NCBI GenBank assembly: GCA_002269645.1
Contig: NIVC01000795.1
Coordinates: 186,001-250,000, forward strand
DNA length: 64,000 nucleotides
Reading direction: 5' to 3'
Source: Macrostomum lignano
Taxonomy: Eukaryota
In this document: positions 23,401 to 26,400 of the stretch, in pieces
Numbering within the stretch: position 1 is the stretch's first letter
Layout of the letters: every line of letters begins with the position of its first letter
Made by a program: the position numbers and the translations under genes
The notes under the pieces: model-generated
What the model saw: only the letters and a program-made list of their open reading frames with translations
Databases searched by the model: none
What the model was told of the DNA's origin: nothing

Positions 23401-26400
23401 TTGTCTGCTATAGTGTCTCCTATTGTCTGCTATAGTGTCTCCTATTGTCTGCCATAGTGTCTCTCATTGTCTGTCATAGTGTCTCCTATTGTCTGCCATA
23501 GTGTCTCCTATTGTCTGCCATAGTGTCTCCTATTGTCTGCCATAGTGTCTCCTATTGTCTGCTATAGTGTCTCCTATTGTCTGCTATAGTGTCACCTATT
23601 GTCTGCCATAGTGTCTCCTATTGTCTGCTATAGTGTCTCCTATTGTCTGCCATAGTGTCTCCTATTGTCTGCCATAGTGTCTCCTATTGTCTGCCATAAT
23701 GTCTCCCATTGTCTCCTATTGTCTGCCATAGTGTCTCCCATTATCTGCCATAGTGTCTCCTATTGTCTGCTATAGTGTCACCTATTGTCTGCCATAGTGT
23801 CTCCCATTGTCTGTCATAGAGTCTCCTATTGTCTGCAAGTGTCTCCCATTGTCTTTTATTGTCTCCTATTGTCTGCCATAGTGTCTCGCAAGGCAGGTTT
23901 TTCCCAAAAATACACTACGGAGATAGGAAGTTTCTTTTAAGCACAAAAATTGTTATTGCTTTTGATAGGAGGCAGATCCAGTGTTGATCTTTTGATATGT
24001 TGTGCCTTTCTTATTGCTCTATTGATATTCATAAGCTTTTTGTTCAAAGAATTAGGATTCTATGTTAATTTTTATTCTACGTACATTTCCTGTACCTAAC
24101 AATTATAAAAATGCATGGCACGGCTCCAATCTTTGGTTTTATGAATCTATTTTATCATCTCTGTTACAAATATTTGTTACACAGTCAGCTAAGAATGATA
24201 AAATAGTGGAATGGGCGTGTAACCGCGGCTAAGCTACTGGTTTCTATTGCTAAGGATTATGAGTGGATTATCTGCTGTACTGATTTGAGATTTGGTAGTT
24301 TCGCTGCCACCAGGTTTCCTGCTTTCCCTAATTCTAGTATTTTAGATTAAAGAAGTGAGTCAGGACACCAAAGATTATAGTTAACAGTTGGAAATATTTA
24401 ATAATAAAGAGAATGCGTACAAAAGGTTATTTTGTTTTACATTAATTCCCTAGTTTTATTCCCGTTGTGCGTTGGGCAAGACTCCCAATAATTAGAGGCA
24501 AGACTCCTCTGTGCAAGCCTAACCCTTATATTTCCCTTTCCTTACCACTTCTTCGTGAACTCTCTAAGTTACACAGGAGAAGACACTCCAAAGAAGCTCC
24601 GCGTTTTCTTTCCCGAGAGCCCAACTGCTCTGTAGTTCTAAAGGAACCCCAATTTTATCCACTTAACCCCGCTCTAATTATTTCCCCGGGTTGAAACTAC
24701 TGATAGTAGGGTAAAAGCATATTTAAACCCACAAAATTTCCCGTTCCTAAAATAATGCCCTACTACACCTCCCCCTCGCTAAACAAATGTGCAAAACCCC
24801 CTTTTGTACATTGATATTATATTTATTTAATGAAATTTAATAAGTAATATTGCGCTTTATCAGCGATAACTGAATATAAAACAATGTAGTGAGCAAGGAT
24901 TATTAAGTCTGCACGTATGACAAGTGGAAAAGTTAATGGTATACATAGTCATAAAACTTTAATGATATTAAGTGGTTGAACAAGTTGAAATATGCGTATG
25001 GCATTGTATTATTAAGACCTGGATTAAATGTTAAGTATGATAAGAGGAATTAATGACATGCTTACTAGTTACACTATTAAACGCTAAATGTTGAGTAAGT
25101 TGAACAAAAGAACGCAAATAATGGCAAGTGTATACAACATCTAAAAAAAAAAGCGGTGCAAAAAAAAGCAGTAAAATAATTGGCAAGTTCTTACTCCAAA
25201 AGATGGTAAATGATAAAAAAAATATTTGATGGCATCGAGCATGTGTAATTATGTTGCTTTGGAAGAGTTATTAAGTTCCCTAGTCTTACTTAATTGATTG
25301 GCCGGAGATTTAGGGTATTTTGCGTGGACAAGTAAAGTAGTCCGTTTACCGGAATCAGCTGATTAGCAGGGTCAAATCGACTGGCGATGAACTCAAGCTG
25401 CTCGGTGGTCGCCCTCATACTGATTGGTCCCCGAGCCCTTCCTTCTGCGTACTGTAGGCAGTATGAGCAGGCGATTTCAAAACACCTGACTGCCTCCTCT
25501 GATGTCGCCGTGGCCAGGAAATGGACGCACGCTTCCGGTAGCTGAGCCTCGAAGTGCCCTGTTCTTCCTGTGGCCAGGATAGACCGTTTAAGAGCGCGAC
25601 GGCACTTGCGGAATTTCCGCGCCTGTGTCCCGGGGCTGTCCGGACGCTCCGTGCTGGTTTCTTCAAAGGCCGGCGTGTCACCCAGGTCTACCCTGAGCAG
25701 TGAGGCATAATCAATGAGCGGGCTCGGCGCAGGCTCAGGCTGGCCTCGCGTTGTGTGGCACTGCTCGGGCTGACGTTGCTCTGGTTGGCACTTCGTTTCG
25801 TCTGCGGCCGTCTCCTCCTGCTCGTCTATGGGCTCTACCCCTTCCTCGTGTTGCCGTATCTCCTCCATAAATCGCGCCATCTCGTCTCTGAACTCTTCCT
25901 CCTTTTGTTTAGTCGCCCTCTCTAATTCTTCTAGATTGACATCTATGGCCAGTCTTCCTTCTTCCTCTTTTTGCTGGTCCAATCTCGGCTTCTTAGACTC
26001 TTTTCTGCGCTTGGCCAGTTGCACTGCCCTAACTTGCGGAGGCTCATTTTCTTCTTGGCTAGTTCTGCGCTGGCCATATATTCTCTTTGTCGGATAGACG
26101 CGGATTGGGGCGTCGGCCATAGTTATTGAGATTTTGGCTGCAAGAGGTTAAATGGGTTAAACAACTCCGCTATCCTCTGCACATAACTTTTCTGGTTTGG
26201 CCTGACAGTTAACCTATCTGGAGCATGACGCTCTCTAGCTGGCCTAGCTTCTAAATTAATCCCTAGATTATTATTGTTATTATTTAATTGTACCGGCATA
26301 ACTCCTTGTACACCTACTAAATTATTTTGATTATTATTTGGATGCTGCACTTGTTGATCTGGCACTAACTGCACATTATTTTGATTGTGCACTGGCATAA

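Follow-up and report, generated by a model that had tools for sequence, protein, structure and literature searches.

A selected, non-env third gene behind pol in a Macrostomum lignano Ty3/gypsy element, with a probable spliced-leader acceptor in the last pol codons

The window analyzed here (64,000 nt of the Macrostomum lignano genome, assembly GCA_002269645.1, contig NIVC01000795.1, positions 186,001 to 250,000 of the forward strand) carries on its minus strand a Ty3/gypsy LTR retrotransposon in which LTRs, target duplication, primer-binding site (PBS) and polypurine tract (PPT) are all present (Table 1). The order of its genes, gag followed by PR-RT-RNase H-IN, fits Ty3/gypsy, and Pfam recovers Retrotrans_gag, zf-CCHC, RT, RNase H and integrase. 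Both LTRs start with TG, end with CA and agree at 561/561 nt, and the element is flanked by a 4-bp CTAT target duplication, from which we conclude that the insertion is young; with pol uninterrupted as well, the element is as intact as the original prediction had it. A tRNA partner was sought for the PBS, which may be of the tRNA-Leu type, and none was identified. The accessible parts of PMC12801592 give Mag, CsRN1, Gmr1/Osvaldo and Mdg3 as the Ty3/gypsy clades of M. lignano; a motif search of its supplement files 1-5 and of the text part of its large archive did not find a family name for the present element.

Table 1. Features of the element, in window coordinates
Feature	Position	Strand	Basis or remark
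5′ LTR, 561 nt, TG...CA	32140..32700	-	identical to 3′ LTR; CTAT on both outer flanks
Primer-binding site, 2 nt past LTR	32128..32137	-	sequence
gag, 347 aa, with zinc knuckle	30640..31683	-	Pfam Retrotrans_gag and zf-CCHC
Candidate -1 slippery heptamer G GGA AAC, in gag/pol overlap	30682..30688	-	sequence; presumed function
pol: PR-RT-RNase H-IN, uninterrupted	26123..30688	-	open frame and domain matches
Trans-splice acceptor within last pol codons: branch-like TTTAAC, pyrimidines, TTGCAG	26138..26164	-	exon starts at 26137
ORF3, 276 aa, conserved accessory gene	25290..26120	-	matches, dN/dS, intactness
Basic NLS-like patch, aa 37-46	25983..26012	-	alignment; presumed function
SUMO-interaction-like hydrophobic motif LAIDV with acidic flanks, aa 57-61	25938..25952	-	conserved alignment block; putative SIM
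Acidic long helix (possible coiled coil), aa 63-92	25845..25934	-	AlphaFold2, pLDDT about 78-91
Conserved five-helix C-terminal domain, aa 163-276, first helix basic	25293..25634	-	pLDDT 87.9, pTM 0.80; 22 invariant columns in 11 sequences
3′ UTR, AT-rich, unstructured, moves along with ORF3 allele	24781..25289	-	allele comparison and folding
Polypurine tract	24768..24780	-	sequence
3′ LTR	24207..24767	-	identical to 5′ LTR

Each LTR also holds an internal PBS-like word, TGGTGGCAGC (at about 32235-32246 and 24302-24313 of the window), which is kept in the second subfamily described below. A joint in sequencing run X9 skips 3499 nt (27109-30609) with 6 letters of microhomology, probably representing an internally deleted derivative that retains gag, the IN end and ORF3, and run X1 has a loose end at 27115. 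The window contains another direct-repeat pair (47153-47757 and 52162-52766; 605 nt, 93% identical), with no pol match between its members.

The ATG of ORF3 is found 2 nt past the pol stop (TAA-CT-ATG), and the ORF3 stop is separated from the 3′ LTR by 522 nt including the PPT, so that both the 276-aa frame and the 3′ untranslated stretch of roughly 520 bp originally described are borne out. Searching the genome with ORF3 gave 117 matches, which are pieces and not copy numbers, ranging from 100% down to about 35% identity. Among 10 intact representatives, the C-terminal domain showed dN/dS values of 0.06-0.40 in 19/45 pairs, with synonymous sites saturated in the remaining 26/45, and the linker was near neutral in some pairs. 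We further compared 50 distinct contexts around 55 genomic acceptor sites, a set chosen by the acceptor pattern and in which some breaks may be assembly errors: ORF3 was intact by a strict test in 23/50 and failed in 27/50 (one full-length copy, L116, with a differing second residue would bring the count to 24/50), and the last 276 codons of pol were open in 21/50. ORF3 is thus broken no more often than pol. Neither neutral evolution nor a match to an env or host gene was seen; we conclude that it is almost certainly a real, selected gene.

The encoded protein comprises a conserved N-terminal motif, a basic patch, a hydrophobic core, an acidic helix, a variable linker and a five-helix domain. 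The string KRRKESKKPR, which had been singled out as NLS-like, is located in the basic patch, and K[KR]x[KR] occurs within the first 70 aa in 10/11 aligned ORF3s; the charged coiled coil that had been proposed may correspond to the long helix of the AlphaFold2 model. A C-terminal domain is likewise present as a predicted helical domain (aa 163-264 in the AlphaFold2 model), but its description by cysteines did not hold: these form no conserved cluster, 1 Cys is invariant among 11 aligned C-terminal domains and one allele carries just a single Cys there, and a Cys- or zinc-defined domain was rejected. The top 19-residue hydropathy is 0.65 in the window copy and 0.35-0.65 across 11/11 ORF3s, with no signal peptide or transmembrane stretch in any of them. 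A furin motif is absent from the window copy, and RxK/RR appears in 4/11 ORF3s at unshared places, leaving no conserved furin site. Env identity was therefore rejected, and ORF3, under selection and without env features, is the non-env accessory gene that the original prediction took it to be.

Outside the M. lignano genome neither a relative nor a fold match of ORF3 was found. Pfam reported nothing over cut-off, an ESM Atlas search yielded no usable match (best 0.87, for the domain alone), there were 0 matches among 689 and 7166 candidates, the best E against PDB sequences was 0.074, and metagenome contigs gave no match. Foldseek with the ORF3 model reached best E values of 0.98 in the PDB and 0.33 among viral structures, and the best VIA-align hit, a cullin repeat (Z 6.4, rmsd 4.0 over 105), was level with unrelated helical bundles. 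Six short repeat matches, four of them to WD40 proteins, from a profile search of 1.84 billion representatives were rejected as noise. On the predicted model the protein is a candidate orphan fold, absent matches being no proof of a new one.

M. lignano uses a 35-nt spliced leader (SL) and YTNCAG as its trans-splice motif, according to the accessible text of PMC8629364, and the acceptor at the end of pol fits YTNCAG in every junction type of the family. The acceptor pattern occurs at 55 genomic sites with CAG, at 0 with the synonymous Gln codon CAA and at 0 in a reversed control. When contigs of four probable RNA runs were compared with 25960-26330, one from run X6 (499 nt, depth 9.1) matched positions 25960-26138, differing at 6 of 179 letters, and left the element exactly at the acceptor AG (26139-26138). 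Its next 20 letters are loose; read on the minus strand together with base 26138 (a shared G), they make up the final 21 nt of the published SL. The contig comes from a sibling copy about 97% identical to the window. This junction is seen in 1 contig from 1/5 probable RNA runs (X1, X2, X5, X6 and X9), among the loose ends listed; the RNA nature of the runs is guessed, their contigs show presence only, and depth was not used for gene ranking. Other contigs run unspliced through the acceptor, and commonly so. Taken alone, the X6 contig may also reflect rare, aberrant addition of the SL to an orphan acceptor.

Among the contigs of 4 probable RNA runs, compared across the whole element, none showed a cis joint to 26137; GTRAG donors are present upstream of the acceptor. 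In the genome, the SL motif has 61 matches, of which 8 + 19 were read: 10/19 are followed by a GTAAG donor and are SL RNA genes, and none of the 27 loci read leads into ORF3. Likewise, SL followed by CC or CT was found in the assembly at 8 candidate loci, 0/8 with an ORF3 fusion. ORF3 had been suggested to be expressed by termination-reinitiation or splicing; splicing is what the X6 contig and the conserved YTNCAG point to, in the form of SL trans-splicing and not of cis-splicing, and termination-reinitiation was not borne out. We conclude that SL trans-splicing is likely the main route of ORF3 expression, and regard this route as fairly well supported.

Some further loci with SL sequence deserve mention as observations in their own right. 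In a dispersed repeat (L052, L053, L055-L058, L072, L073 and L078) most of the SL exon is present and runs into AACC... in place of a GT donor, and some other SL-motif loci resemble retrocopies of SL-capped RNAs. SL RNA genes are arranged in arrays with about 11-kb spacing (contigs C1214, C3830, C4525 and C4853 of G000).

Starting from a selected gene inside an intact element, we suggest from the one contig and the conservation of the site that part of the LTR-driven RNA would be joined to the host SL at 26138/26137, and the resulting capped message for ORF3 would be freed in the manner of a downstream operon gene, while the remaining RNA would stay full length for Gag-Pol synthesis and packaging. 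In all 14 junction types of the family, the frame set by the AUG at the end of the SL covers the final 3-5 codons of pol and ends 1-6 nt ahead of the ORF3 AUG; the close stop-start spacing remarked on in the original prediction would follow from this frame ending at the pol stop. The ORF3 AUG, lying behind this 3-5-codon uORF, would be reached through leaky scanning or short-uORF reinitiation.

The acceptor is also found in sister families. From the second tier of the integrase search (about 100 loci listed, IN 59-65% identical) a set of 16 loci was used, after exclusion from 20 of L082-L084 and L101, which are family members and, in 3/4 cases, cut or decayed before ORF3. YTNCAG is present at the same place in 15/16 of these loci, against a chance of about 0.07 per 25-nt window, the loci representing only about five independent families. 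In 12/12 sister loci with KSY/KTY it lies 56 or 68 nt downstream, compared to 54 nt in the window family, and its codon phase differs, the residues read being H-F-S, H-S-S, C-S-S or P-C-S instead of L-Q. An ATG stands 7-30 nt behind the sister acceptors; in three loci beyond the 12 measured the acceptor reads TTTCAG and the ATG follows after 7 nt. The module behind the acceptor consists of a disordered basic tract and a helical domain of roughly 100 aa; it is in frame with pol in 9/12 measured loci, where integrase tails are 500-760 aa long, and lies past a stop in 3/12. Split families have the ATG 5-11 nt past the stop and still keep the acceptor. In fused families the SL-AUG frame overlaps the module ATG, so that the tidy uORF is not universal and leaky scanning must also be possible.

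Three public gene models (P0007, P0008 and P0009) are stand-alone versions of the sister module; P0009 starts at the first whole codon past the acceptor although the upstream frame is open for 500/500 codons. Judging from the methods given in the accessible text of PMC8629364, we infer that such models reflect SL-trimmed transcript starts. Comparison of the ORF3 domain with the sister module gave an hhalign P of 0.03 and a probability of 1.7, and in a profile search sister modules took ranks 1, 8 and 9 of 1568 segments with a best E of 0.41, which is no more than suggestive of homology. The sister module of L089/L090 contains TLLRVD, similar to SLLRVD in the ORF3 linker, a weak hint of common origin. 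One locus, L094, is without the acceptor motif around its pol stop (minus strand, about 6800-6890), and there a G-run and a TATA-like box precede an ORF3 of 354 aa, pointing to an internal promoter as a different means of expressing it.

ORF3 and the 3′ UTR behave as a cassette. Ten elements compared to the window copy were 96-100% identical in RT and 97-100% in IN, and only 49-99% in the C-terminal domain of ORF3, where they fall into at least five classes (97-99, 82, 64, 62-63 and 49%). The 3′ UTR tracks the ORF3 allele, with 50-97% identity to the window, and chimeric ORF3s exist (L002 and L028). Five further elements form a second subfamily (RT 94-95%, IN 79%) with ORF3 types of its own. 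Because deep ORF3 classes occur on near-identical RT and IN, we conclude that the ORF3 alleles predate the backbone by far and have been swapped by recombination. Balancing selection by host conflict could act on these alleles, and would keep deeply diverged cassettes of ORF3 and 3′ UTR circulating on one gag-pol backbone. Structure in the 3′ UTR was looked for and rejected, with z of +0.2 to +2.6 in 9/9 UTRs folded.

A SUMO-interaction motif (SIM) typically consists of a hydrophobic core with an acidic flank in a disordered region, and SUMO has a role in piRNA-guided and retroviral silencing. The disordered setting and acidic flank of the hydrophobic core in ORF3 match this pattern: a SIM-like core with 4-7 acidic neighbors is present in 10/11 ORF3s (the 11th has VVAL), the pattern for the family having been set after the alignment was viewed, and LAIDV of the window copy is a weak form. 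In the sister modules, canonical [VIFC]IDLT occurs in 8/14 and in 0/14 on the antisense strand, while 6/14 lack the canonical form (L097 and L089 are left out of this count). LIDLS is also found within the folded integrase of 4/14 sister loci, and such words can arise for other reasons. Complex prediction of ORF3 aa 42-78 with host SUMO gave a score of 0.03, which speaks neither for nor against binding.

In view of the SIM-like motif, the basic N-terminus and the allele diversity, we favor nuclear anti-silencing over other roles. The basic N-terminus would bring the ORF3 protein into the nucleus, where the SIM-like motif might dock it on SUMO-modified silencing or chromatin complexes with the helical domain as effector. 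Among the functions considered, anti-silencing via the SUMO pathway is a tentative choice from sequence features, with somewhat less than an even chance of being right. The same degree of caution applies to the picture as a whole, in which ORF3 is a non-env, SL-expressed accessory gene and its product a predicted nuclear SUMO-binding anti-silencing factor. A broader version, in which a flatworm gypsy clade is organized as an operon whose pol-end cistron is freed by the host SL and encodes a new family of SUMO-docking anti-silencing proteins held in ancient balanced cassettes, is speculative and rather unlikely to hold in full.

Both the route and the function can be read differently. ORF3 could be produced mainly from full-length RNA by termination-reinitiation after pol, with the SL contig as a minor by-product, and the stop-to-ATG distance of 1-6 nt in all 14 junction types listed is what one would expect of it. 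However, UGGGA, the TURBS-type motif of termination-reinitiation, occurs in the 100 nt upstream in 0/15 copies, and pol itself is reached only via a frameshift; split sister families have kept their acceptor despite an ATG so close to the stop, and the acceptor CAG is never swapped for CAA, all of which makes this route improbable. Accepting an SL-resolved message, the protein could act in a CERV- or Rev-like manner, shielding full-length RNA from the internal acceptor or exporting it in a feedback loop. The genomic RNA does hold a strong acceptor that needs to be skipped, the N-termini of ORF3 and of all sister modules are rich in Arg and Lys, and the Cer1 element of Caenorhabditis elegans deals with this very problem through CERV, the product of a spliced mRNA (PMC10309623 and PMC3315495, accessible parts). 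Yet ORF3 is without the invariant Cys loop, has half the size of CERV and different predicted domains; its 3′ UTR offers no structured element, and a cognate RNA element in gag-pol sits badly with ORF3 alleles that swap freely on one backbone. We consider this role unlikely, if the most serious of the competing ones.

Slightly less likely still is an integration-targeting or tethering function, with the module as an ancestral C-terminal extension of integrase that acts in trans where a stop has been gained. Such an extension is where chromodomains sit, the module is fused to long integrase tails in most of the measured sister loci, and a SIM could offer a means of directing the complex to chromatin rich in SUMO. 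Fused families too, however, keep acceptor and ATG and have stand-alone gene models, the homology between the ORF3 domain and the sister modules is weak, and alleles at synonymous saturation beside an almost invariant IN argue against a tight IN partner. The least probable of the alternatives is that ORF3 is not an activator at all but a self-limiting or competitor-restricting factor, through copy-number control or allele-specific exclusion: several deep alleles sharing one backbone and modest copy numbers (55 acceptor sites) would fit, but no similarity was seen between ORF3 and the Gag or Pol of the element, matches to which do not overlap.

Several known systems resemble parts of this arrangement. 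Errantivirus env is expressed from a spliced subgenomic RNA and shares with the present element an acceptor at the pol/ORF3 boundary, whereas ORF3 has no signal, transmembrane or furin features and the SL RNA would serve as donor in place of the leader. Cer1 is likewise a Ty3/gypsy element in an SL-using host; CERV is an orphan accessory protein that has helical parts and a candidate NLS; the subgenomic RNA encoding it is processed and can carry an SL, and full-length RNA skips the site (PMC3315495 and PMC10309623, as far as accessible). According to the same sources, though, cerv mRNA is cis-spliced and shares sequence with Gag, the SL1 site lies 5′ of gag and RNA occurs with and without SL1, and CERV has 517 aa with a Cys loop and a G-like domain, neither of which is present in ORF3. 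In the element studied here the acceptor is located within the 3′ end of pol, a cis joint was looked for and not seen, and release of the downstream cistron would fall to the SL itself. In the Vesta and Juno elements of bdelloid rotifers, too, an additional non-env ORF, thought to be auxiliary, separates pol from the 3′ LTR, but these ORF3s are recognizable enzymes (GDSL, DEDDy) or transmembrane proteins, and trans-splicing has 0 occurrences in the accessible text (PMC5408684). The SL-resolved operons of M. lignano use the same SL and YTNCAG acceptor to free a downstream gene from a polycistronic RNA (PMC8629364, whose accessible text has 0 occurrences of retrotransposons); here, by contrast, it is the genome of a retrotransposon that would serve as operon, with an acceptor overlapping coding sequence.

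Non-env ORF3s (PMC5408684) and an SL on a retrotransposon subgenomic RNA, in Cer1 (PMC3315495, PMC10309623), were thus already known, judging by the accessible parts of these papers. What is new is the SL joined, in one contig, at a YTNCAG acceptor hidden in the last pol codons, ahead of ORF3. Among other accessible texts, PMC5832876 describes SL exons merged with transposons in Schistosoma and gives no mechanism, trans-splicing is absent from PMC13524379, and the main text of PMC12801592, on M. lignano LTR elements, mentions neither ORFs nor trans-splicing. A literature search, which most subscription papers fell outside, returned no paper joining retrotransposon, SL trans-splicing and subgenomic RNA, no counterpart of the SIM, and no account of a cistron freed by an SL acceptor lying within the upstream pol.

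If correct, the proposed route would mean that a retroelement has gained a way to express a third gene via the operon-resolving machinery of its host, at a site inside pol, and would give a starting point for explaining further ORF3s in hosts that use an SL. Neoblast genes are enriched for SL trans-splicing (PMC8629364, accessible text), so whether the element RNA stays full length or is cut at the SL site could link the activity of the element to stem cells. M. lignano is a host amenable to transgenesis and RNAi. Antagonists of transposon silencing in animals that an element itself encodes are, to our knowledge, few. As a minor observation, the genome of M. lignano contains seven near-identical intronless SUMO genes (L125-L131), several of them as inverted pairs.
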